NCBI GenBank assembly: GCA_001724265.1
Contig: MEDY01000087.1
Coordinates: 62,001 to 126,000, forward strand
Length of the DNA: 64,000 bases
Source: Rhizaria sp. SCN 62-66
Taxonomy: Eukaryota
Reading direction: 5' to 3'
The position numbers and the translations under genes were made by a program. Positions 26,301 through 60,137 of this stretch are shown in pieces. Below the pieces are notes generated by a model, which saw nothing but the letters and a program-made list of their open reading frames with translations, did not search any database and had not been told where the DNA came from. Positions within the stretch are counted from its first letter, which is position 1. Each line of letters begins with the position of its first letter.

Positions 26301-27461
26301 GTTGATAGCGCTACTGTCTTCGATAGCGTCGGCGGTCACGAAGCGGTCACTGATGCCGGCGTTGTTCATGTCGGCAGCAAATGCGCTGCCGTCAATGCCA
26401 ACGGCGCCGTCGAGCTCGGCGCGCCGCTGCTGCGCCGCCACCGACTCCGGCGTCGACTGCGCAGAGCCCGGGCCAGAGCCCGCGTTGGAGCTGGCGCCAG
26501 AGGTCACGCCGGAGCCGGCCGCGGAGCTTTGCGCGGAGGAGTCGGTGATGCCGGCGAATGAGCGGGCGAGGATGCGATCGTACGCGGCCAGCGGGTCGGC
26601 ACTTAGATTAGCCGCCGCGGAGGAACTGGCACCGTCCAGTCTGGAGCCGACAGCCGCGGAGCGACCAGCGTCCGTCTAGTTCGCGTAGAGAGCGGCGTAG
26701 GCGGCGGCGACGTCGTCGCGGTCACTGTCGTTGCTGTAGTGGTTATCGCTCTCTGCATCAGCGTCAGCGTCAGCGTCAGCGTGAGTGTCAGTGTAAGCAA
26801 CGTTAGCGTCTGCATCGACATCGTCGTCGTTGGTGACGTCGTCATCAGCGTCGTCATCCTCGGTGTAGGTATTGTTGCGGTCAAAATTAGTGTAGCGATC
26901 ACCAACTTGCTGCGCGGCCCCGTCTGTGCGAGCAAGAGCAGCGTCAACGATCGCATCTGCAGCAGCTGCCGCGAGGGCGTCAGTCGCAGAGTCAGTGTAG
27001 ACATCGGGGTTAGCAACGTGCGTCCTGTAGTCAACGACGTCATCCTCCTCGCTGATCGCGTCAGGGCCGTGCATGCCGCTGCCAGAGAACGCTGACGCGA
27101 AGCCAGGCGCGGCGGCCGAGGCTGGGGCGGAGGATAGCATGCGCGCGGCGGTGGCGGCGGCGGCGGCGTCGGGTGACAGGATGTGCGGCAGCGGCAGCGC
27201 GTCGGAGGGGGAGAAGAGGCGCCGCGAGGTGTCGGCTGAGTGGGCAAACGAGGACTCTGCCGTGCTGGGTGAGACGAAGGGCTGGAAAGCAGACGCGGCA
27301 GGGCGGGACGCGGCGGCGCGGTGAGGGGGGGTGAACGGAGCCATATCACCTGTCGTGGCCACTGCAGGGGCGCGAACGCGGTCAACCGCGGCCGAGGAAC
27401 CGGGATGAGGGTACGTCCCGGGTGGGTCGGAGTGACTGCCCGGGGCGCGTGGGTCGCTCAT
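17337..27461 (-). CDS. Giant Ala/Glu-rich coiled-coil protein, ~3374 aa if the single in-frame TAG at 26676-26678 is read as sense
   Basis: ORF 26676..27461 (ATG start) and ORF 17337..26507 are in the same frame, and the 168 nt between them is open. Long heptad-like A/E/R segments flank a Thr/Ala-rich region with TQT-like motifs. Stop is TAA. Confidence 0.8.
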
Positions 27462-31481: not shown

Positions 31482-33122
31482 TCAAAGCAGCGTGAACTCC
31501 GGCAGCGGCGACTGCAGCAGCTTGGTGTGCACGTCCTGCGGCGCCAACCGCTGGCTCTTGGGCGGGGTCTGGGTGCCGGTGAGCAGCAGCTGGGCCGGGG
31601 CGGCGGCCAGGGCCGGGATGAGCGCCGGCACGGGCAGCGGGGCCAGCAGCGTCGTCGACGGCGCGTTGAGCGACACGCGGCGCTGACTCTGATTCTGGCG
31701 TTGGCCCGAGCTCGCGATATCGAGCGGAACAATGGCGGCATCAGTCGCATCAGACGCGAAGCTGTTTAGAGCGAAGCGCGGACTGCTACCGTGGCCGTGG
31801 CTGAGGCTGAGGCTGTGGTCGTGGTCGTGACTGCTGTTGCGCTGCTGGTGTGTACTGGCACTGCGCGCCGGGCTGTAGGTCGCAGAGGTCGCCGGCGAGC
31901 CGAAGCGCGACACCGGCAGCACCGCGGTTCTCGCGGCTGAGTGCGCCGAGTGCGCGGGGGTCGCTGCGGGCGCAGCGGCGCCGGCGGCGAGGCCCGGGAC
32001 CAGGGGGGCCGTGTACACAGACTGCTGCTGGTGGTGGTGATGCGGGTAGCCGCTGTTCGCGCTTGACTGCAGTCTAGAGAGGCTCTGTTGCGCGGCGGTG
32101 CTGTTGTAGCCGAAGCCGCCGCCGACTGCGCCGCCACTGACGGCGCTGCCGTTGGCGTAGGTGCTCACGGTCGTGACCGTGGGCAGCGGGGCCGGGGCGG
32201 AGAGCGGGAACAGCGGCACCAAGGCCACGGACGCGGGCGCAGCGGACGCATTGGCGGTGTGGAAGGACGGCGAAAACGAAGCACGTTGTTGCTGCTGTTG
32301 CTGTTGAGGGAAGAGCTGCGAGTGCTGATGCTGTTGTTGCTGAGCAGCACCAAAGCCGAACAGTGACAAGGATGACGCAGGCGGTGTGAACACGTTAGCC
32401 GAGTTGAAGCTCTTCCGCGTGGCTCCCGTCGCAGTCGTCGACCCGAGCGTGCGGGTGACGTTGCTGGCAGACAGAGACGCGCCGAACGCGTTCACGGCGC
32501 TCGCGCTCCAGACGCCGCCCGCAAACGCGCCGAGGCTGCCGCGGCTGCCAAAGACGGCGCCGTGGCCGCTGAAAACGAACGCGGGGGCCGTGGGAGAGCT
32601 CGCGTGCGCAGTTATGCTCGTAAGGGTGGAGGTGGAGCGGAAGCGCACCGAGGGCAGCTCGACGGGGGAGCTAAAACCCAGCCGCCGGGGCCACTGGGAG
32701 CTCAACACAGGGCTCGGAGGCAGCATGAACGAGGGACGGAAGGTGCCAAAGGGGCCCGGCACCGCGGCGCCCGCGGCCGCGGCGGCGGAGGCGGCGAGCG
32801 TGAAGCTGAGGCGGCGGCAGCGCATGTGGAGCGAGTCGGCACGCGGGGACAGCGGTGGCGACGCGTAGGACACCGAGACCTAACGGTGTTGTGCCTGCGC
32901 ATGACCATATGTGTGCAGCGTGGGGGCCGAGAGCTGGGCGTAGAAGCTGGGCAGCACTGGCGAGGTGTAGTAATGGCTCCGGGCGCGGATGACCACGGTG
33001 ATAAACTTGCCGAGGTTGCGGCGTGCGCGGCGCATCGCGAGCTTGGAGTTGGCCAGACGACGCAACGGCTCATCGGCGAGCGCGCGGCGCGTGCAGGACG
33101 CAACGCACCGCTGGCGGGCCAT
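31482..33122 (-). CDS. Uncharacterised Ser/Ala/Pro/Gln-rich protein, ~546 aa, with one in-frame TAG at 32880-32882
   Basis: ATG-initiated ORF 32880..33122 ends in TAG and continues in frame (GTC TCG GTG...) into ORF 31482..32873, which the track opens at a GTG. Stop is TGA. Confidence 0.65.
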
Positions 33123-40799: not shown

Positions 40800-41635
40800 T
40801 CTCGCTCCACATTCCATCCCTTCTAAATGTAGTCGTCGCGCCCGACCTACAAGCGACGTGGTTCTAACGGCAAGACAAACACCTTAGTGTTGTGCTATGT
40901 CGATGACTGTGTCGCCCTTGCTCCTACAGCCACGGACGTCACCACGATCAAGAATGAGCTCAGCACCCGCTTCAAGGCCACTGATGGAGGCGACCTCAAG
41001 TTCGTACTGGGGCTTCAAGTCGAGCGCAACCGCGTGACGCGCGAGATCTTCCTCTTCCATCCCCTCCTCCACCTACACTGAGCTCATTGCAGCACACGTC
41101 ATGAGCGCTGCCAACGTGGCCACAACTCCTCTCGCCATGGGTACTGTTCTCATGCTTGATTCTGCGCACAAGGACGATCTCGACGGTGACGGTGGCGACG
41201 GGTACTCCAGGCTGGTTGGCAGCCTGGTGTACCACTCCGGCACGGTCCGCCCAGACCTTGCGTATCCAGCTGCATATCTCGGCCAATACCTCGCTAGGCT
41301 CGGCCACGCACACTGGGCGGCAGCAAAGCGCGTGCTGCGCTACCTCAAGGGCACGGCTGTCTATTGGCAGCGCCTCGGCGGCTTCAAGAGTGGCGGCAAA
41401 AACTGTGTCTATTCGGACTCAGATTGGGCCGGCGACCCTGTCCAACGTCGGTACACTACGTATTGTTCAGCTCAACGGAGCTCACATGTCCCATCGTCTA
41501 GAAGAGCTGCAAACAGATGTTCCCTGCGGAGTCAACGACGTAGGCTGAGATAGTTGCAGCATCTTTTACGACCAAGGATGAGCTCTCCATAAATGCTCTG
41601 GGTTCCTGGTGCGCGACCAATAGCTGAGGGGGGCA
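40800..41635 (+). mobile_element. Degenerate Ty1/copia LTR-retrotransposon relic (RT C-terminus and RNase H), frameshifted, with a candidate polypurine tract
   Basis: LVLCYVDD (RT catalytic motif), DGGDLKFVLGLQVER, YSRLVGSLVY..TVRPDLAY...HWAAAKRVLRYLKGT, YSDSDWAGD (RNase H) and KSCKQ....STT*AEIVAAS, spread over several frames. GAGGGGGG at ~41626-41633. No intact LTRs seen. Confidence 0.9.
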
Positions 41636-43656: not shown

Positions 43657-44287
43657 GGTAATTTCTCTCTGTTGATGGTTGTGATCCCCTGACTACCACG
43701 CCATCTAATCGTTAAAAAGATTAAAGTAGAACAAGTGACCAGTGATTTGAGAACTCCTCGATGACCTAAGAGAGTATAGATATTCCTTGAGTAGCATAAG
43801 TGCTGGCTCATGGTGAAGATTAGACTGTGAAAAATACATAACATAAGCATGATGACAATTAGAAGTGATATAACGCTCGAGTCCGAAGATAACAGAGATT
43901 AATAGTAATTGTGCCCAAGTGTGTGACCAGATAAGCCCGCCGGAATTGGATCCATGACCGTCAGACCCCACGTTGAATTAAAATGCATTTCAGGGCAAAG
44001 GTGCCGTAACCTGACATTTAATTTATGTCACCGTCTAAAATGCGTGACTTTTTATACAAATTCAATTACTATCCTCTTTCTTGTGCGCTTATGAAGACGT
44101 AAACGTGACTTTGAAAAACTCACCTCTTCTCATCGGCTTTGACGATCCGCCTAGTTGTTCTGCTAGCAGTTATCCATCTCTAGAGCAACGGGGATCAGTG
44201 TAGACCTGTGTTTGTGTCAACTTCATTTGTGATAATTGTTAGGCGACCCACTTTCCGGTCTTGGTCAGCTTTGACTGAGCTCGGCAG

Positions 44288-47200
44288 ATGCCGGTGGCCC
44301 CATGCAACACCGTGTCGTCCTCGTCTGACGCCCCCGCATCCGCTGCGGGACGCCACAGCTCCGCTACAACAAGTAGGGCGCCAGTGGTTGCGGTGCCCAG
44401 CAATGGCAACAATGCAAGCACAACTCCTGTTATTGCAACGACCTGGGGGAAGTATCCTTCAGTCGTACGCACATCTCCCGTTCCTATCACAGTACCTGCC
44501 CAGGTAGGCCTCCACGCGAATGTGAGGAATGGTTACGATCGTGGCCACGACCGTAACTACAACGATGACGAAGGCAGCAACCGTGAGCGCGGCCAGGACC
44601 TTGCCCGTGGAAGTGAAGGCACCGCAAGTTACAACAGTCCCTCGGCGCAGGGGACTGAACCCCCGCGCTCTCTACACATTGTTCGTGCATCTGAGCGCCG
44701 TAACGCTGAGCAGGCGGCGAACGGGCTGAGCTCTTTGACTACCAATGTTATGTCTCCCAACAGCAATGGCACACAGCGTGTCGGACAACCAGGGAAGTCC
44801 ATCATCACGGCTAAGGGGAAGACCATCATCACTACAAGCAAGGGCAATTTGACCCCCGCACCCTTAAGTGCGACTACAGCAGTCTCTACAGGATCGGTTC
44901 CTTCCGGTCGGATCATTACGACGCAACGCGATGCTGCAACAGGAGCTGCACCGATGTCACTCACGTTCTCTGGCGCGAACCATGGCATCACGTTGACATC
45001 CGCCGTCCTCAGTCAGTACAACGCATACGTGCCAATTGCATATCTTGGCGACCCTATGAGCAACAACAACGTCAGCGTTGTGAACACTCCCTTCGGCCCC
45101 ATTCACCTGCCGTTACAGCTGCCTCTTCAGTATCATGCACCGGTTGTTCCCGACGACCATGCTGTGACACCGCCTCTCGCCCCCGCTATCGCCGAGGTCA
45201 TGCACCGAGAGCTCGCTGCTCTTCGCAATGATCAGCCCGTATCAATATTGTATGACGAGTCGGATGCTCACCGGCCCAAGACAAATCATAACACTAGCAC
45301 AACAAAGCCCATGAGCTCGCCCTCGGCTGACCTGGCACCTCTCAAAAAGGTGAATGAAATGGTGGATGTGTCGCCTCAAAATGTCATCTCCGTATGTAAA
45401 TTGCAATTGCACTCTGCTTGACTTGTTTTTCCTAGACAGAAAAAAAAGCGCGTATTGACGCTTCAAACACTGTGAAATTGTGATGTTCGATTGAATATTT
45501 CGTTCGTGGATCGGATGAGTACCGTACCTCCATTTGATCGTCGAAATGTAACGCCCACCGCGTCCTCTTGTTTTCACCGATACGCTATCAGTGTGCTGAT
45601 CTCTTGACTCACTCATATGTCTCACTCTGTCTTGGAACAATCTCTCTTGTTTTGCTTTTTCGCTTTTGTTATGCCTTGTGTTGCGTCGCTCTTTGATAGT
45701 CCAACAAGTTGAACATTGACGACTCACATGCAAAGCCCACTGTGTCTGGGATGTCCGCGCTTAAAGAGGCGACCGTCGCTGACTCAGTCAAAGCTGATCC
45801 CTCTAAGGCAGTGATGAGCGAAGAAGAGCGTCTGGCGCTGAAGGCTGCTAAGAAGAATGCCCGCAAGGAACAGAAGCTTCGTGAGAGTCTCGCCAGCGCT
45901 GATGCGGAGAAGGATGCTGCGGAGCGCGCTATTGCCGAACGCGAGCAGAAAATCGTTGCCAATGCGATTACTCCGTTTCTAGCTACGCTCCCTCCACGCC
46001 ATGAGGCCGCCGGCGACGCCACAGCCGCTTAGCCAGTAGTCGACGTGGCAGTAAGCAACGTAAGTACGGTGTCTGCTAGTCTAGAGAACGCAGCTCCTGT
46101 TCAAAACGCGCCTACCGACGAAGTATCGCAGGTCCCCTCCTCTGAAGCCGCGTCAGCTCCGATCATGTCTCACCCGGTCGTTCAGGTGGGTATACAGTCT
46201 ATCCCCGCTCAGTCTGCACAGTCCGTCCCCACCCGCGCCCCCCCTCTGTCCATCGCTGTTCCCTCAGCGTCAGCCTCAGTCCCCATGACCGATGGCCCTG
46301 CTCTCCGGAACCCAGACCAGTATCGATCCTCTCTATTTGGGACTAACACAACGACTCCTCGTCCTATCAGTGGTCCTGGACACATGTCTGGGCCTGGGCT
46401 TGGGTTTGCAGGTGACCACCGCCGAGACTCTTTGCACCGCCCCCCACAGTCATATCAGCAACAACAGCGTGGTGATCCTCGTGCTGAACGTGACCCTCGC
46501 GACTACTCCGAAGGTCGTAGCTCCCTTGATCGCCGTCCAGACTCTCGCAACTATGGCGACCTCCGTGACTACAGGAACCGTGAAAGGTATGAGAAGGATC
46601 GTGACTGGTACGAGAAGGGTCGTGACTGGTACGAGAAGGACCGCCGTGATCGTGAGCGGTATGAAAGGGAGCTGCGCGAACGGGAGCAATGGGAGAAAGA
46701 GCATCGGCTGGAGCGGGAGAGGCAATTGGCGTGGCAAAATCGTGACCATCGCGTTGCTTATGACCGGGACCGGGATCGGGACCGCGACCAGCGTGACAGG
46801 GACAGGGATTTGAGTCGTTATCAGGCTGAATATGAAGCAACCGATCGTCCCCGTTCTCAGCAGCTTGAAACCTCCCCTTATCCTCGTCAGAACATCAACA
46901 ACACCCCCAGCAGTGACAGTGAAGTGGCACCCTCCAATCCACAAGCTGCAGTTAATCTTGCGACTCGAACCTTTTCGTCCGCAACTGGTAACTCAGGACC
47001 TGGACTTGCAGCGCAACCAACTGCCGCCGCACCCCAGAGTACCGCAGATATCTTTCCCACTGCTGCATCTTACGCTCTTGGTCCCATCGGTCGACGTCCG
47101 CCCGCTCTTGCCACTCTCTCGACTCAAGTTGCGACTGGGAGAGTAGGGAGTCCTATCGACATCGATGACGACGATGATGATGGTGATATGCCTCCTCCGC

Positions 47201-50200
47201 TTGAGACTCTTCGTGGTGAGATTGTTCCGGCTACCGTTGTCTCAGCTCAAGGTGAAATCGCTTCCTTGAACGCTACATTCACGGCCAATGCGGCACTTCG
47301 ACGTATCCCCCGCAAATCATCGTCGGATGCATCATCAAAACCTGGAGACACAGAGGTGCTTCGACCAACGTCTATGGGGGTTGGTCCTCGGTACTCACTC
47401 CAGTCTGGGGACTCGGTTGACACTGCTTCCTCTGGGGCCGTCGTTGACCGTGCTTCAAGCCGGACAATGACCCCATCGAGCTCCGCGCGTGGGTCACCCC
47501 ACTTACAACCCGCACGCCACTTGCCGTCGACTTTGGAAAACATTCTCGGCCGGATCCAGGACATTGCGAGCGACGACGATGAAGCCACCGTTGTGCCCAT
47601 TTTTGACACTGCTGTAACCCCTCACGATGAGGCCCTGGCGATTGCGACCAGGGAGGCTAAGATCGCAGAGCGTGAAGCACTATTTCCCGACGAAGTTGCC
47701 CGCGCAGACCCGGAGGTTATAGCATTTGCGTTGACTCGGCGCCCCGCAGTGACTGAGGAGCAGGTTGCTGCTCTGCCGGAGAACGATATCATGCGCCGGC
47801 TCCTGACTGCGGTTGCAGATGTTGAACGTGCAGTAGAGGCACGGTTTGACCGCTACTTGCGCGAGATGATTGTAGTTCACATTCCTGAGCTTCGCAACCG
47901 CGATCACCGGACTTTGACTTTGGAGGAAGTTGAGTCGCATGGATCGTTTTTACTCCGGCAACCCCGCCCCGTGAAACCAGACAGTGAAAAATGCCCGCTA
48001 TTATTGACGCCAGGATTCATGATGTCGCAGCAGCTGGCCGAACTCGGTATCGATGCATTACGTGCCAGGCACGTTGCCCACATCGCGCCACTCCACAACT
48101 ACACTCAACACACGTTCGCCTTCACACTCTTATTCGTTTCATCTCTCAATTTCGCAAACTGTGACGCGGATCTGGATGCCAAGCTGTCTTTAGCTCGCAA
48201 TCAAGTTCAGTATGCCCGTCGTATGGCCCTCGCAGGGAATCCGCTTAATCTCGAGCTACCCCCAGTTGAGCCGCCGCTAGATGCTGGTTACGAACGCGCA
48301 CGTGTGCGCAAAGGTGTTGCTGGCATCCTCGACTGGTCCAAGGTGGAACGCTCTATGGTTCCGCAGCTCGTGCGTCTGACGAGTTCAGAGAAGGAGCTTG
48401 CCTTAAGCCTCATCGCCAACACAAATGCAAGGAGTCAGCCGCAGCGCACTTCTAAGCGCACGAGGGCGCCTCTCAGCGACTTCTCGTTACCTGTTGTAGC
48501 TCACACAACAGATCGTAGCGCTGTGCGGTCAGTGCGCATGTCCCAACCCTTGCCGAACATTTTTGCCTATGCCAACGATACATCGATTGTTGGTGAGCTT
48601 TTGCGCACCCTGTGTGCCGAAGTGACGGATATTATGGCTGACTCATACGAAGCCACGACTCAGGCAAGGCCGACTGCGCACGAGCTTGCGCACCTGCTTG
48701 ATGGAACTCTCGGTGGGCGTTTTGCGGCTGTCGCGTCAGTGGCACCCCCGCTAGAACCAACCACTCGCGATCGCGCGATCGCAATTGAAGCATTGGTGGC
48801 GGACGGCAAGATCAACTCTGAAGTGCTGCTCGCCATTGCCACATCACCGCTTGATGAAGTTGAGGCGCGGCATGTTGACCGCTGCATCGCCGTCGACCCG
48901 ACGATACTCCCCGGTCAGCCGGTCGCATTGACGGCATACACATTGGCTAAATCCATTTGGCCAGAGCAGGGTATGGATGCGACGCGTGTGTTACCTACCC
49001 CATGGTATGTGCAACCAGACTTTGTGATGCAAATCCGTCGTGCAGGTGCACGCATTCGAGCGCAGCATGCGCGATTGAATGCTCTCAGTACAGGTAGTAC
49101 CATGCAAGAAGCGGAAGAGGCAGCACGTAACGCTGCATTGACCAAGGGCGAGAACCTCAGCCCAGGACTTGTGCTGCAGCTCGTCAAGGAGGGGGCTGCA
49201 GTCGTGAAGCAAGGCGCCTATTTAGCTGCGTTGGCGAATTCAACATCGAGCTCAGACAAGTACTTCGCTCGCAGGTATATTCAGTCCCTTGAGTACATGC
49301 AGAGCCAGAAGGACATCGCGAATGCGATCAAGCTCGGGGCCTATGCCTCCGCTACAAAGGCCAAGACCACTACTAATACTGATGCTGCGACTGTTCGTAC
49401 CACTGCGGTAAGGACTGAATCAAGTAAGTCTGTCTCGGCAACGCGTATCGTCTCATCGGTCGCCTCTCAACCGGTGAAACGACTGCCCGTCGTTCCTGTT
49501 TTGACAAATTCCTCGGTGAGCGAAACTTTGTCGTCTGCAGACAAAGCAACGCGCATCAGCGCAAGTTCGAGTGCTAGCAAGGCGGAGAAGAAGGACAATA
49601 AAGACAAGAAGGACAAGCGCGAGAAACGCCCCCACGAAAGTGGCAGTCGTGAGCCCAGCCGTGACCGCGGCCCTGACCGTGATATGGACCGTAGTAGCAG
49701 TTCGCGTCATAGGACTCCTAACAGCGACACTCCGCATGTTCATAACAGGAGGCCGGCAACACCAACTAAAACCGCAAACATGACCGATGGTGACCGTGAC
49801 ACTGACGATGTTCAGCTCCCATTACCTGAGACGCACTCAAAGGAAACCACCGTGATGAGCGATGCGAGCACAAGCAAGAGCAAGGAAGTGGGGGCAGTTC
49901 GTGATGCTGTCGCGAGTGTTGCAATGACAGCAGCTGGAGCAAAGCTGACTGCGTCGACGGACAGCATCACCAACGGCAACGAGAGTGGGCACGCGAGCGG
50001 CACTAAAACTGCTGCATCCTCAACTCATGCCGCAAAACCGGTCGCACACTTAAAGATTTTGACCAATGTCAAGTCGGTGTCGTCTCCTGCAGCGAGTCCA
50101 ACTGCGCCTGCTTCAGCGAAACATGCCAAAGTAGGAGCCCTAACCTCACAACCGCCGCTTGAGTGTCGTTATCGTTGCTCAACGTGCACAGCTGAGACCA

Positions 50201-51096
50201 GAGAGGTGAGCAAGACTGTACCACGCTGCTGTGAGATCTGTCGCGGCCGCAATCTCACACCTATCATCGGCAATCAGTCTCCAGTTGCTTAGACGGTGAC
50301 ATCTGCAGCACAGCAACAACACGTCAAGAGCAACAAGAAAACGACATCCCTGTCGACCACATCGTCATCTGCATCGGTCTCAGGGCGCGTTCCACCAAGC
50401 AGCAGTCCCACTCTTTATCAGCGCCTTGTCGAATCCAGCAAGATCAGCAACGTGAATGCGGCAAGCACTCATGTCCCATGGACACCTAGTGTTCGTTGCG
50501 GCGGCGGCAGCGACGGGAATACGAGCACGCAAGCTGTTGACATCGGCAGCAGGGATATTAGCAATGAGGACCTTGCCGCTGCAATCTCAGGTTCAAGCTC
50601 CAACGATACTTCTGTCGCCCCAGTCTCTACGAATGTTCATATTAGCGGCGCTGTGGGAGCAACTGCTTCGGTCGAGAAGGTCACTGACTTTTCATTCCAG
50701 GCCAAGGAGGAGCCCGTCTTCACAAGTGTGCCTAACAAGCTTGCTGGAACTGTCGTGTCCGGCGCGTCTAAGTCCTTCACTGCCTTCTCTACTCTGCCAC
50801 CGCCGCCGCCATCGCGTCCCCTGCAGCAGCAACAGCAACAGCAGCCGGTGCGTAAGCCTGTTGTGCTGTTGCCGATGCAGTCTCCGTACGAGGCGCTAAC
50901 TGGTGCGGTGACGGTGGAACTTAGCAATGACGATGACAATGGTAACAACGACATGATGATGACACAAAATGATCTCTTTGGTCCTGCGTCCCTGCCTGTT
51001 GCATCGTCTGACTCCTTCGCTCTTCTATCTCCAGATGGAGGCTGTACAGCTGCTCCGCCCAGTGATCAGGCAACCTCTTCTGCTATGTCTAATTAA
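44288..51096 (+). CDS. Large uncharacterised protein (~2166 aa) with an RD/RE-rich tract and a CxxC-CxxC zinc ribbon, 2 exons (44288-45391, 45700-51096), two in-frame TAGs (46030, 50290)
   Basis: Donor GTATGT at 45392 and acceptor TGATAG| at 45699. ORFs 45709..46032, 46045..50292 and 50296..51096 share one frame and are separated only by single TAG codons. Final stop is TAA. The 5' start is uncertain because CAG|ATG could be an acceptor. Confidence 0.75.
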
Positions 51097-52352
51097 GCGA
51101 TGCGGCAGCTCTGCGGCATCAACATCATCGACCAGTAATTTTCTATTGAGGAAGACTTTCCCAATGGACGTCCCAATGAAAGGTCTGCAACAAGCTACAA
51201 TAGTGTTTAAAAAAAAAAAACTCTACCTATTAACCCGTCTATATATAATGAAACAATCACAAGATCTGCGTCTACTAGCATGTAGCATCGCACGCGTAAC
51301 TCAATACATCACATCTCGGCCCACAATGATGGGGTACATGTGTCGCGTTGCGTGCACGTATATTTGTTTGATATGAGTGCGCATATAACATTTATGAAAA
51401 GCGAATTGTTTGAAATGTTTGTTTATGATTTTATTTTTGATCATGTCGAGGCTCATACCAGCAGCCCTGTCCCGTCCGAACGCACTATCATAGCAGTGCG
51501 GCATCCTATCTCGTCGCCATCATCACATTCGTGTTGTTTGTGAGATCGCAATATAGATATAGAAATGCCGCGTTAAAGAAAAAGAAAAAAGAAAATAAAC
51601 CTATTAAACCAGCACTGCGAGAAAAGCAGTTGTTGGCAAATCTCGTTTGCACATGCGAAGGCATTGAGATGAGTGAGTACACCCAAAAGAAAAGAAACGA
51701 AAAAGAAAGAAAAACTGCAAAAACAAAAAAACAAAAATTATAAAATACTAACGATTTTGTAAAATAAAGTTGACTTTAATGCCAATAAATACAAAGCATG
51801 GGAGTATAGTGTGATGCTTATCACAAAAAGCAAACGACACGTCGCAATAACAACAAGCGAACCAATCAAGCGGCACACTCTGGAGAGACTTGTGCACCAG
51901 CACATGGAAGCAGCGCCCCAATGGATGATGAGTGGACGGCGTCACCCACTGCAAGAGACGTACGCGTGTGCCTGCTATCCGCATGCAACGACGACCGAAG
52001 CGGGGTTAAGCGGCGTTGAGCATCACTTGAGAAGCGGCGCTCATTCGACTGTTTAAGACAGTGAGCAGACCGCTACGCAGCCGCATCACATGCCGGGCAA
52101 GCAGCCACAAGCAACCGTCGTTTGAGCCGTGGTCGACTCTCTGTGAGAGAGTGCACGAAATGTGGTATAGTGCTGCGATGACGATACAAAACGAACGTGT
52201 GCAGATCAAACGCTCGACTGTTGGTGACGTTGGTGTTGCCTGCGCACGCTAAGAGCGAGATAACACGCCGTCGCAGTGCTGCGCACCGCTGCTGACTGCC
52301 CGGGTGCCGCTGCGTTCGCCTGCCGCGCGGCCGCTGAACGGAGTGGGGCCGC

Positions 52353-55176: not shown

Positions 55177-58100
55177 ATGCTATTAGCTTCTTCTAAGCCG
55201 CGCCTCAGTAAGTCGCTTGTGGCCGTGGCGATGCTTGTACAACTACTCGCAGCGATGTTACCTGTGCCTGCTGTAGCAGCCGGGGGCGGGATTGACTGTC
55301 AAGCTAATGCGGAACAAAAGCCAATTCAGTTAACCCCGCAGCTTGCGTTGCTAGCGGGGGACGTGATTAGCTTCCGCGCAGTACGTTCATCAACCGCCTC
55401 TGTACACACTTCACTTCAAGTCACTTTAAGTCACAAACATCGCTACTTTCCTGTTATCATTCGATAGGTCAAAATTTATCAACCACACGCTTTTTGTAAT
55501 TATGCGTTGCTTTTTGCCTAGAATTATGGCACAGTAACTGGTTATCTTGCTCCTCAAGATACGACTGCCTCGAGCAAAGACTGTTCGACTGTGCCACTTA
55601 CAGTTGTAAAGGAGCAGTCGCGTACAACGCAGGTATTTCGTAATGAAACTCAAACATGTCGTTTATCAGTGTTTTATAATAGCTTTACGTTGTTTTTCCT
55701 TGGAATCTGTGAATTCTACAAAGATATACCTTGTTTAAGAACGCTGACATCGCACGCATCTTCCTTCCCAACCTCTTGAATCTCTCTCACACACTGCAGT
55801 TCATCATCGTCCCCGTGGCTGTGCTCGACGATGAGTCCATCGACGTCGCGTCCCAGACGCTGCCCACAGCGACGACGACCGCGCCGCGCCTCGTGTCGAC
55901 AGTGCAGCTCATCCATATCACGGACGGGCGCATGCTCGGCACGCGCGCCTGCTCTACCCCGCGGTCTGTGTGCAACTCAGCGCCGGTGTTGCTGCCCAAG
56001 TCGTTCACCTACCCGTGCAACCACACGATGAAAATGTTCAACAGCATCTGGGACCTGGAAGCGCACAACATCACGGCGCAGGCGTACCAGGCGCTGCTGA
56101 GGGACCGGTCGGAACAAAGTAAGTGAAAAGTTACATATAGATCACTGATCACAAGAGATCTCTCTCGAAATAATCGCTGTATATATATTTTTCGCTCGTG
56201 GGTAATGTATCTGACGGTTTTCCTCCTTCATTTTGGTTGTCTTTGATTCAACTGTGTTCATCACACTTTGCGCGTAGCTGATGCGACTGGTCCGACGAGT
56301 CTGCTGCCGACGGCGCCAGGACTGATATTCCCCTCAATCCCCAACATCAGTGCAAACTCACAAGGCAGTGGCTTCAACATCTTCAGCAGCAACAGTAACG
56401 TCAAGACTGCCAACATCAGCACGAGTGGTGAGAGCACAAGCTCGGCAGGCGCGACTGCGATCAACGCGAGCGCAAGCGAGGCTGGCACTGAAGCTGACAA
56501 GGACGCAGGAGGCGTCGACGCCGCAATCGAGGCGGCAATGACCGCGGCGGCGCTGTCGCTCGCGGAAGACATCTGCCTCGACGAGACAATTCGTGGCAGC
56601 GGGCCGATCAGCGCGCTCGGTTATCAAAGTCGAAATAGAGGCGCTGCGCGCACATTCAGCGCATCGGCCCAAAGCCAAGCCACAGGTCATAGCGCTGACG
56701 CGAATGATATTGTTGACTATGATGAGTATGATGATGATCTCAGCAATGATCTTGATTAGGATAGTGGCGGACTCACGGGGAAACGACGCGTGAGTCGCGT
56801 CTTTGCCCCTCGCTGGCAGCCATACGGCTCCGCAACGCGCGCGCGCAGTCACTCCACAGCTACTGGTCGCAGCCACACAACGCTCGCTCACAGTCATCTC
56901 GACACGGCGGACCAACACAGCAGCAGCAGCGAACCCGTCAACAGTGCCCCTGAGGGCGGCCTCGTGCGCAGCGGCAAGCACGTGCGCGTCAGCGCCAGAG
57001 CGGAGCGGCGCCACGCGGAGGCGGAGCTCGCCGCGGCGCCAAACCCGCCCGCGGCGAGGCCGAGCACCGTCTGGCGCGACCTGCGCGCGCAGCAGCGGCT
57101 CCTGCAACAGCAATATGAGCAGCAACAGCAGAAACAGCAGCAAGCGCAGCAGCAACATCAACGGCTGAAGAATGAGACGCCGTCGAACGAGGGTCTAGGC
57201 GGACATACGCACAGTGTAAGCACTTTAGCAACAGGCAGTGCAGCTGCAATGGCGGCGGAGACGCGCGACAGGCGTGACCGCAGCACGATGCCAGTGAGAT
57301 CGCAGTCACCGCAGCCGTCACAGTCGCCGAGCAACAGCGGTGCGCAGGCGCATAGCAGCACTGGTGACCCACAGTCACTTGGGACAAACCCGATGTCGCA
57401 AAATGACAGTTACAGCGCCAAGTCAGGCGGTACAGGTGCACACTCAAGTCCTGAAACTGCACGAAACGCAGTTATCGCAAGCGAGAGTGACGCCGACAGT
57501 GAAAGTGGCCGTGAGCGTGCTGAAGCTGCAGTCTCGCGCGAGCGCGCGGAGCAGTACCTCACCACTCTCGAGCGCTACGGCAGCAACCCTGCTCTGCTCA
57601 GGAAACAGCTCCAGTGGCAACCACTCGACACAACCGGCGCCACTAAGAGCAGTGCAAATACGAGCCAGAACACGAACTCCGCGGAATCGGCGTCAACAAG
57701 CACTGGCGGGGCTGCTGAACCCACTACCGCTGCCTCCGAGACCGCTGCGGCTGCTGCTGCGTCCGAGACGACGGTGGCGACGGCGGCAGCAAGCACGACG
57801 ACCGAGGCCGTCATGCCGGGCACGATGCTCGGCAGCGGAAGCGACGCCACGGACCTCATGAACATGATCAACGTCGGCGGGTTGGCCTCGTTCCTGTCGA
57901 GCAGCGGCGGTCTCACCGCGGGTACGGGCGTCACCACGCCAGGCCAGTCGCAGGGCGTCGAGGCCACGGCGGCGGCCGCAGCGGCCACGGCCACAGGCTC
58001 GCTGATCGGGCTTGACCCGAGCCAGATCTTCAAGCCGGGCGATTCGCTGGGGCTGCAGTCGACGCAGGAGAAGATGCTGCAGTCGCAGCTCAGCATGGTC

Positions 58101-60137
58101 CAGCAGACGCAGCTGGCGAACCAAACACAGCTGCTCTCTGCCGCCACGCCGCTCAACTACGTCAACAACACGGCCTTCATTTCGCTCAAGATCCGCCCGC
58201 TCGGGGCGGGGCCTGTGGAGCTGGTGACGCCGTGCGCGACCTACGTGACGCAGGACACCCTGTCGCCGCCGGTTTACTCGCCGGAGCCGAAGTCGATCTC
58301 ACCGTTCGCAGTCAGGGGCGGCGACGGCAGCGGAGGCGGAGGAGGGCGCGGGCGCAGGCGACGGGGGAGTAAGGTCTCGGGTAAGCGTGGCCGTAAGCAG
58401 AAGCGCAAGAATAAGACCATGAGAACGCAGAGTGCTGGGAAACGAGACCGCAAGAAGACATTCGCGAACACTGACGCCGAGCGTTCACCGCAGCGATACG
58501 TGCCTGCGCACAGCGACTTCGGAGCCCACAGTCACTTTCAGCCATTTTCGACCCACGCAGCAGAACAAACACAGCACATCAACAGAAACAGCGCGTCCCC
58601 TGCAACAACGACAACAACGAGGACAAGTGACCGCAGCACGAGCTCTCGCAGCAGCGACACCAGCGGCTCGTGGCTGAAAGTGAAGGATGTCGCCACAGGC
58701 GCGACGCACCGCGTCCTCAGCTCGGCGGTGCACACGCCGCGCGCGCGCGCAGTGGGCGCCGTGAGCGCGGGCAATGTCGTCATGGGCCGACTCGCCAGCC
58801 GCGGGCGCCACGGCACCGTCAGCGCGCGCGCCCACGGTAGCAGCGCGGATCTGCGCAGCGCAAACGGCGAGAGCCTGCGGACGAGCTTGCTCGACGCTGA
58901 CAGCGACGTTGACGGCGACGGTGATGGAAGCTCAGGGGGCTGGGCAGCGTGGGCCCGTAGCAGGGTGCGGAGCGTGGTGGCCGGGCTCGGGCTTGGGAAC
59001 GAGCGGTTCGCAAGGGAAACACGGCGCGGCACATCGCCCGCCAGCGACCCGCAGTCGTTGGTCTTGCTCACTGGCGACTCGGGCTCCAGCTCGGGCTCGA
59101 GCAGCAATAGCGGACACAGCAGCAGCAGCAGCAGTGACTTTGACTTTGACGCAGACGATGACGAAGACGAAGACGATGACAATGATGACTTCAACAGCGA
59201 CGATGATGGCAATAATAGCAACAGCAGTGGTAACGGCAGGAGCAACGGTCACAGTCGTAGTCGCGCTCGCGGTCACGGGTTCCGTACGCAGCAGACCAAC
59301 GGCAGCAGCAGCGGCGTAGACCTCATGTCCGACTGCGTAATCCGCGCCGTGATGAACACCGACGGCACAACCAGCGGCGTCGAGTGCATGCCCACCTTCT
59401 CGGCCTGCCCCACGCCCACGGCGCTGGATTCGAGCACCTTGTGGTCGGTGACGCGCGTGCCTTTCAGTGACGTGCCCACCAGCTCGCTCTTCGTCGCAGA
59501 GACAATGACCAACATCAACTACGACATGGACTACGCAACCGTCAACACGTACCCGTTCGTCATCGGGCAGATGGCGCTACGCAACTTCTCGCCCTTCGAG
59601 CAGTTCGTCACTGCGCGCGCTAGGAAGTCCATCGTGCAGAGCATCAGCTTCCGTTGGGGCGTAGGCATAACGCCCGTGGTCAACGTCGCCTTCGCGGACC
59701 TACCCAGTGTCATCGTGCAGCCGCTGCAAAACCTGCTCAACACGCTTATCGAGCCCGTCATCACGTTCCTGGAGGGGATCCTGCCCGGCCTGGGAACGCT
59801 GATCGCGGACATCGGCGTGCCCACGGCGTCGCTGGCGTTCGTCGAGCTCTCCGTGCCCATCTCCTTCGGCGGGTCCGCCACGCACACCGAGGCCACGGAC
59901 ATCTCCATCGCGTACTCGATCACCGCACCGCCGCAGTCGCACGTCGTGGGGCGCGGCATTGCGCACATGGGGCGCTCGTCCGTGCCCTTCACCATGGACC
60001 TGGCGCGGCGGGTCCATGTGCCTGCGGGCGTGTTTGGGCAGCTGACGGGACAGGTGATTAACTATGAGTACCGGATCCCCGGTGTATACGATGGCGCAAA
60101 CCTCATTAACACAGAGTTCATCGTAGACACGCTGTGA
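55177..60137 (+). CDS. Putative secreted protein with a C-terminal aerolysin/natterin-like beta-pore-forming domain, ~1497 aa, 4 exons (55177-55380, 55522-55632, 55800-56118, 56278-60137), one in-frame TAG at 56757
   Basis: Signal-peptide-like N-terminus (SLVAVAMLVQLLAAMLPVPAVAA) and three phase-consistent GT-AG introns. The C-terminal NINYD...LRNFSPFEQ...SISFRW...ISFGGSATHTE...YSITAPPQSHV...VPFT...GVYDG pattern resembles ETX/MTX2-aerolysin domains (recognised by eye). Stop is TGA. Confidence 0.7.

Follow-up and report, generated by a model that had tools for sequence, protein, structure and literature searches.

A large gene in the window, the 64,000-nucleotide stretch of contig MEDY01000087.1 from Rhizaria sp. 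SCN 62-66 analysed here, is interrupted twice by an in-frame TAG and by no other stop codon. We argue that the cause lies outside the gene and are nearly certain that UAG is a rare sense codon across the whole genome. Quite likely the organism uses a variant nuclear code in which UAG is a rare glutamate (Glu) codon and UAA and UGA are the stops. At the DNA level, essential genes have in-frame TAGs within their exons, genes hardly ever end in TAG, and one transfer RNA (tRNA) gene carries the anticodon CUA on a tRNA-Glu body (G000:C84:76008-76080). In the proposed mechanism the glutamyl-tRNA synthetase (GluRS) would charge this tRNA-CUA, which would decode UAG; UAA could remain a stop because tRNA-CUA cannot wobble to it. 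Two changes present in the DNA for the stop-recognition domain of the release factor eRF1, T32S and T58K, are presumed to weaken recognition of UAG. The window gene would be an orphan with two exons that encodes about 2,166 amino acids, its two TAGs read as Glu at unconstrained sites; once the code is known such a gene is ordinary, and the code itself is the finding.

The gene is made up of the following features, in window coordinates:

44288 to 45391, plus strand: probable first coding exon of the same gene, with ATG at 44288, 368 codons (open reading frame 44279-45421), a GC content at third codon positions (GC3) of 0.59 and a phase-0 donor GTATGT
45392 to 45699, plus strand: probable phase-0 intron (GT...polypyrimidine...TAG; GC 0.42, T 0.37) that joins the exons in frame
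45700 to 51096, plus strand: coding exon of 5.4 kb, 1,799 codons, open apart from two TAGs
46030 to 46032, plus strand: first in-frame TAG, taken to be a sense codon, probably for Glu, at residue 479 of the spliced model
50290 to 50292, plus strand: second in-frame TAG, taken to be a sense codon, probably for Glu, at residue 1899 of the spliced model
51094 to 51096, plus strand: terminal TAA, last codon of the frame

Within the single frame at 45700-51096 TAG occurs twice, TGA never and TAA only as the last codon. These counts match the sequence-only reading, which had described one frame with two in-frame TAGs (contexts GCT TAG CCA and GCT TAG ACG) that ends only at TAA. Its division into three segments also stands, though the sizes it gave (107, 1,415 and 266 amino acids) are slightly off: from stop to stop the segments measure 110, 1,419 and 267 codons. 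That the whole region is one exon appears to hold as well, as judged from sequence. When the same DNA was resampled 200 times with a first-order Markov model, 45.9 TAA and TGA codons were expected (minimum 28) against none observed internally, and 14.0 TAGs (minimum 5) against two; the other five frames across the region each hold 35-104 TAA and TGA. Stops are far fewer than in the resampled DNA, and the frame is therefore under selection to stay open, with TAG itself depleted. Joined through the splice at 45392-45699, whose acceptor (T 0.44, pyrimidine 0.67) falls within the range of five other acceptors, the two exons give a probable gene model of 2,166 amino acids; a further exon upstream of 44288 is possible.

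An orphan gene with a low GC3 of 0.54 might be explained under the standard code, by programmed readthrough specific to this gene, by pseudogene decay or by an assembly error. We give this next to no chance. Decay, against which the sequence-only reading had already argued, is hard to reconcile with the absence of any internal TAA, TGA or frameshift in 1,798 codons. The contigs of run X2 (43900-46960 and 47248-51500), from a study distinct from the possible source, show both TAGs intact and three differences, none of them at a TAG; in run X4, from a third study, the first TAG is covered with no difference, and the contig that carries the second has one difference, its position unplaced. The TAGs are unchanged in runs of independent studies and therefore are not assembly errors. 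Programmed stop-codon readthrough, in which the protein runs through UAG, is known for single genes; here the same pattern recurs in eRF1, in kinases and in a UBC domain, that is, generally and inside essential domains, and a cognate tRNA is present. Readthrough of the retroelement gag-pol type was rejected, as no Pfam or PHROG domain (protease, reverse transcriptase or integrase) was found and the gene is single copy in the genome.

Splicing offers another way to keep the standard meaning of these two codons. An 87-nucleotide intron at 50206-50292, raised as a caveat by the sequence-only reading, would remove the second TAG, and an alternative acceptor at 46030-46032 the first. GTGAGC at 50206 and the second TAG do share phase 0, and acceptors stand behind many in-frame-looking TAGs elsewhere (four of nine lone TAGs in kinases, two of three in PF07714, and those in a kinesin and a DEAD match). 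The sequence upstream of the second TAG is weakly acceptor-like (T 0.30, pyrimidine 0.59, against 0.67-0.78 in acceptors), and the contigs of PolyA run X7, short pieces within the gene, cover neither TAG nor the intron 45392-45699. Nonetheless, the 87 nucleotides are exon-like in composition (GC 0.54, T 0.24), unlike the intron 45392-45699 (0.42 and 0.37), and the 27 nucleotides before the first TAG (T 0.04, GC 0.81) hold no pyrimidine tract and do not form an acceptor. Four runs gave no joint, though their real RNA coverage is poor (run X5 is probably DNA, and runs with a small share were excluded). Moreover, such an intron cannot explain the gapless TAGs in eRF1 and in a kinase hinge described below. 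The caveat is disfavoured, and splicing has hardly any chance of being the explanation.

To see how TAG is used beyond this gene, we sampled the window and 60 arbitrary stretches of 10 kb each (664 kb, about 2% of the genome) and applied heuristic counts without transcripts. A codon model asked whether a frame that had been coding-like for 40 codons up to a stop remained open and coding-like beyond it. Coding continues in frame behind 13 of 30 TAGs, against 0 of 63 TAA and 0 of 46 TGA (Fisher p 1.8e-10). Interior TAGs occur in 16 of the 51 frames of at least 1,000 codons, so that the standard code would truncate about a third of the long genes of this organism. The public entry P0121 (1,375 amino acids, from ATG 46165 to the second TAG) is such a fragment of the orphan protein. 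Terminal-like stops are TAA in 26 cases, TGA in 23 and TAG in two; one of these two TAGs lies outside any coding frame and the other reads on for 25 codons to a TAA. In this sample UAA and UGA serve as terminators and are never followed in frame by coding sequence. That UAG is sense genome-wide is, in our view, close to settled.

The frequency of TAG differs with base composition: DNA with a GC3 below 0.65 has 20 TAGs among 30,900 codons (0.65 per 1,000; this bin includes the two of the window gene and perhaps some intronic ones), 12 in 47,700 codons at GC3 0.65-0.8, and 7 in 70,400 codons above 0.8 (0.10 per 1,000). At 0.5-0.7 per 1,000 codons, the probability of at least two TAGs in the window gene (GC3 0.54) is 0.23-0.36, and two TAGs in 1,798 codons are therefore unremarkable. 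Most likely they arose by drift in a gene of low GC3. Overall, TAG makes up about 0.5% of Glu codons, based on 40 strict interior TAGs. Three further cases lie in neighbouring frames of the window:

26676 to 26678, minus strand: lone in-frame TAG in a 3,405-codon frame (27554-17337), coding-like on both sides
32880 to 32882, minus strand: probable in-frame TAG in the frame 33212-31482, a less certain case that may instead be a splice acceptor
56757 to 56759, plus strand: lone in-frame TAG in a 1,296-codon frame (56247-60137), in coding context

A further case is eRF1. Three matches to the eRF1_1 domain were obtained, two of which are pelota exons, and the third belongs to the sole eRF1 gene found (G000:C63). 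It carries an in-frame TAG in the middle of an exon, in the context GK-TAG-KKV, which aligns without gaps to human E107 (L068 1594-1596, minus strand, equal to G000:C63:103463-103465) and is followed by AAA, a rare lysine codon. Among 117 homologues this column holds Glu in 103, Asp in 12, Val in two and glutamine (Gln) in none. Because a release factor is essential, its gene cannot be a pseudogene, and UAG must therefore be passed efficiently. The GC3 of the exon is 0.87, where TAG is at its rarest, and the chance of a TAG in a gene the size of eRF1 is therefore a few percent. The UAG at codon 107 may act as a feedback site or may have arisen by chance. A scan for relatives also retrieved an identical eRF1 copy (L172, 0 differences over 1,626 nucleotides, not independent) and three distant eRF1s, one of which ends in TAG.

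Kinases provide further sites. Among 142 Pkinase matches, a lone TAG was seen in nine, a lone TAA in one (uninspected), a lone TGA in none and mixed stops in four. Four of the nine lone TAGs are splice acceptors and five lie in exons. PF07714 gave three more TAGs, two of them acceptors and one in a kinase hinge (L168, AIVT-TAG-LCEGGSLF). In the hinge column, 28 of the organism's own kinases have Glu in 21 cases, Asp in four and Gln in none. The same 28 kinases show Glu as the top residue in the columns of two other TAGs (L015: Glu 8, Gln 1; L076: Glu 7, Gln 0), and two further kinase TAG columns are variable. A TAG was also found within a UBC domain. The TAGs in a kinesin (one of 54 matches) and a DEAD protein (one of 43) were rejected as sense codons, being splice acceptors only. 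A domain scan covered 95 TAG-centred segments (98 candidates, of which 93 were left once five duplicates had been removed, plus two added); most of them hold no domain. TAGs in kinase insertions (L074, L078) and the sub-threshold L059 were excluded from residue scoring. As a side observation, three kinase paralogues with repeat-like helical C-termini (L075, L076 and L077) together contain five in-exon TAGs, a set well suited to reading the code inside a single family.

For the eight in-domain sites, Pfam scores were summed by hand for five residues: Glu obtains 549.5 bits, Gln 545.5, Lys 544.2, Tyr 531.7 and Leu 528.9. Site by site, Glu alone is best at five, ties with Gln at one, and Lys is best at two. 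Of the residues compared Glu appears best supported, not proven.

The tRNA points in the same direction. A pattern search gave four matches, three of which are not tRNAs; the fourth is the tRNA with anticodon CUA (L151 1486-1558, minus strand), with 58 bits in Rfam, host-type genes on both sides and a poly-T tail after it. A second pattern retrieved only this locus, although intron-bearing or diverged copies would escape it. An Rfam scan scored 63 of 506 candidates, in a list from which the CUA tRNA is absent. Of its 73 positions, 47 are identical to the organism's own Glu-CTC tRNA and 40 to Glu-TTC, against 36 for Gln-CTG and 32 for Gln-TTG. The first five acceptor pairs are the same as in both own tRNA-Glu. 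Among the 30 matches listed from a phage collection, 17 of the 21 annotated ones are tRNA-Glu and none is tRNA-Gln, all with weak E-values; two plasmid matches that were checked are both tRNA-Glu. The tRNA also carries U11-A24, U13-G22:A46 and A37 and has no base 47, features that are Glu determinants in Escherichia coli (PMC9976931, cited here, like all papers below, from the part of its text that was available). The label of pyrrolysine tRNA given by ARAGORN was rejected: U1-A72 and a Glu-like body are found here and not a tRNA-Pyl body with G1-C72, the latter pair being a determinant for tRNA-Pyl (PMC9976931); no search for PylRS was made. A CUA anticodon reads UAG and not UAA (PMC10553269), and UAG is therefore uncoupled from UAA.

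In its core this tRNA resembles a tRNA-Glu from an actinobacterial plasmid (54 of 73 positions identical, including long uninterrupted identities in the D and T arms) more than the organism's own tRNA-Glu (47). It may have been transferred from a bacterium or an organelle, or may be an older Glu body that was kept while the host tRNAs drifted. A bolder reading would combine these observations: an early UAG-to-Glu reassignment in a non-ciliate protist, a tRNA whose bacterial or organellar tRNA-Glu core was joined to a host-type acceptor stem, and a UAG at E107 of eRF1 that limits eRF1 synthesis as a feedback site. In bacterial RF2 an internal stop serves as a feedback site. We regard this combination as quite unlikely.

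With regard to the release factor, position 32 is Thr in all 117 homologues and Ser here. Position 58 is Thr in 116 of 117 and Lys here, as in the closest relative P0004. E55, NIKS, L69, S70 and YxCxxxF are all kept. No printed report of T58K in ciliate eRF1 was found. Thr32 forms a bond with the G of UAG, and Iotanema has Gly in its place (PMC5304391); yeast does not survive T32A (PMC4381064). Changes in the GTS loop raise UAG readthrough in yeast according to PMC12440015, the available part of which contains nothing on T32S. The eRF1 of P0004 itself is 86% identical, with T58K in common, GTS intact and a Val where position 107 lies.

Several observations count against a Glu code. The conserved TAG sites are few, the kinesin and DEAD cases being acceptors. 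T32S retains the hydroxyl, and T58K also occurs in P0004. The margin of Glu over Gln in the Pfam sums is 4 bits, of which 2.4 come from one site, and Lys is best at two of the eight. The neighbours of interior TAGs are rich in Gln and not in Glu (0.138 and 0.033 of 240; for comparison, Gln is 0.22 around CAG and Glu 0.077 around GAG). Likewise, TAG occurs in 4 of 2,004 Q-x-Q contexts against 0 of 780 E-x-E contexts. In a ubiquitin-like domain (L161) the TAG stands opposite a Gln of the organism's own ubiquitin. The tRNA-CUA has no C36, a strong Glu determinant in E. coli (PMC9976931), and the organism's own Gln-CTG tRNA also has U11-A24, U13-G22 and a short variable loop. Finally, the glutaminyl-tRNA synthetase (GlnRS) recognises U35 and charges some amber suppressors in E. 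coli (PMC9976931).

Several of these points (the Gln-rich neighbours, the TAG opposite Gln in L161 and the charging by GlnRS) would suit a code in which UAG is sense genome-wide and means Gln, or a mixture of Glu and Gln, either because GlnRS partly charges tRNA-CUA or by first-position wobble of tRNA-Gln(CUG). One TAG in the L075-L077 kinase family, moreover, faces a Gln in a paralogue, and UAG means Gln in Iotanema and some ciliates (PMC5304391, PMC11687900, PMC9161772). We nevertheless consider this unlikely. Gln is absent from both the eRF1 column and the hinge column (28 kinases), and the acceptor stem and overall likeness of tRNA-CUA are those of Glu. A Gln-rich context would be expected under a Glu code too: it would reflect the mutational origin of TAG from the abundant codon CAG by a CAG>TAG transition, with Gln-to-Glu changes tolerated at unconstrained sites. 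The neighbour statistics reject neither residue. On balance, it is quite likely that Glu is the main residue at UAG.

It might also be argued that the reassignment is incomplete, in that Glu is inserted while eRF1 still terminates some chains at UAG. The window gene would then also yield shorter forms of 478 and 1,898 amino acids, and a few genes would stop at UAG. The rarity of TAG, both among Glu codons and in GC3-rich coding DNA, looks as if the codon were costly; a single tRNA-CUA gene was found, eRF1 retains the conserved elements listed above, and one of the 51 terminal-like stops could be a genuine TAG. However, the sole eRF1 gene needs passage through its own TAG, and the rarity of UAG also follows from GC3 bias and a recent origin. 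We therefore hold this to be very unlikely as it stands, although a weak form of it is compatible with the Glu code proposed here.

As for the encoded protein, its N-terminal part is of low complexity and rich in Arg, Asp and Glu, its centre looks helical and its tail is again of low complexity. One feature was seen in the translation:

50176 to 50241, plus strand: CxxC-x13-(C)CxxC motif, a possible zinc ribbon, in which metal binding would be conjectural

The zinc ribbon noted by the sequence-only reading stands as far as the two CxxC pairs are concerned, but a Pfam search of this region gave no match even at E<=1. For the protein of 45700-51096, Pfam gave no family above the cut-off (best U1snRNP70_N, E 0.0019, in the first segment and sub-threshold), and searches of PHROGs and the ESM Atlas returned nothing. 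The central 600 amino acids retrieved only the protein itself from 1.84 billion representatives. Our best guess is a large nuclear scaffold protein, because of a composition with Arg/Asp/Glu repeats, a lysine-rich patch, two CxxC pairs and long disordered stretches. The gene (43900-51100) has a GC3 of 0.54-0.59 against 0.72-0.92 in most neighbouring genes, which may indicate low expression, recent origin or foreign origin.

The organism is a GC-rich, intron-bearing protist, and runs from bioreactors, wastewater and activated sludge contain its DNA; four of these runs have at least half of the sequence words, and one of them may be the source. Over the full region of SDA1, relatives reach 55-63% identity against about 36-41% for named homologues. 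For the single-domain eIF4A the only named match is Plasmodiophora. Cercozoan polyubiquitin carries insertions. The ubiquitins in L162 (G000:C3:11100-14200) and L164 start with MSMQIFV, the extra residue before MQIF being reminiscent of these, and several are single units ending in LRLRGGHPQ; no polyubiquitin junction was recovered among the organism's ubiquitins. Rhizaria would be a weak guess at the lineage. The ubiquitin copy with the in-frame TAG (L161 513-1100, plus strand, G000:C681) is fused to a domain that weakly matches a phage tail fibre (phrog_5668, E 4e-4), which may reflect capture involving a mobile element or a virus. In the window, 40900-41560 (plus strand) looks by eye like a decayed remnant of a copia-type reverse transcriptase/RNase H; two open reading frames there gave no Pfam match at E<=1. 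Elsewhere, a 1,3-beta-glucan synthase domain lies in a frame of more than 3,300 codons in L133 (G000:C11:70001-80000), where a 'dynein' motif was discarded as a chance match, and L111 encodes a receptor of the Frizzled/Smoothened type.

Few nuclear codes treat UAA and UAG differently. In the literature available, UAG alone is reassigned to Leu in the rhizarian exLh and to Gln in Iotanema spirale (PMC5304391), to Leu and Gln in phyllopharyngean ciliates and to Ser in Scotinosphaera (PMC11687900). UAG otherwise means Glu only beside a UAA that means Lys or Glu (PMC11687900; PMC5304391 and PMC9161772 agree). A search of the open full-text literature, with subscription papers and supplements outside its scope, gave no report of UAG as Glu with UAA and UGA both stops, and there is a modest chance that an earlier report exists. 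If true, the code would fill the missing combination and show that Glu can capture UAG without any change of UAA. The very low use of UAG, the single tRNA gene and the mild T32S make it a candidate early stage on which the codon-capture model could be compared with the ambiguous-intermediate model. Amber-suppression engineering aims for an eRF1 that ignores UAG yet still recognises UAA and UGA, as a natural one would here.

Among the Glu codes, Oligohymenophorea sp. PL0344 is alike in that UAG means Glu and its suppressor tRNA-CUA is nearest to tRNA-Glu. It differs in having UAA as Lys, UGA as sole stop and 10 tRNA-CUA genes (PMC10553269), whereas here there is one such gene and UAA is the commonest terminal-like stop. 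In peritrich ciliates UAA and UAG are coupled, both (UAR) meaning Glu, whereas here only UAG does (PMC11687900, PMC5304391). Blastocrithidia reads UAR as Glu and UGA as Trp, with a dual role for UAA (PMC12153298); here TAA or TGA is followed by coding sequence in 0 of 109 cases. None of these three codes fits, as UAA is not sense here (0 of 63 continue as coding, and 26 are terminal-like); no search aimed at a tRNA with a UUA anticodon was made. A context-dependent code with all three stops reassigned was rejected on the same census and on the kinase matches (no lone TGA and one lone TAA in 142). With the codes of exLh, Iotanema, the phyllopharyngean ciliates and Scotinosphaera it shares a UAG that is sense and UAA and UGA that are stops. 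It would differ from all of them in the residue, Glu, supplied through a tRNA-CUA derived from tRNA-Glu. As in Iotanema, position 32 of eRF1 is altered (T32S here, T32G there), and unlike in exLh, L69 is intact; UAG is also far rarer: it makes up about 0.5% of Glu codons here, while in Iotanema it accounts for about 8% of Gln codons. Judged by the in-frame UAGs in essential genes, the UAA and UGA terminators, the tRNA-CUA gene and the altered eRF1, the code works like those of exLh and Iotanema.

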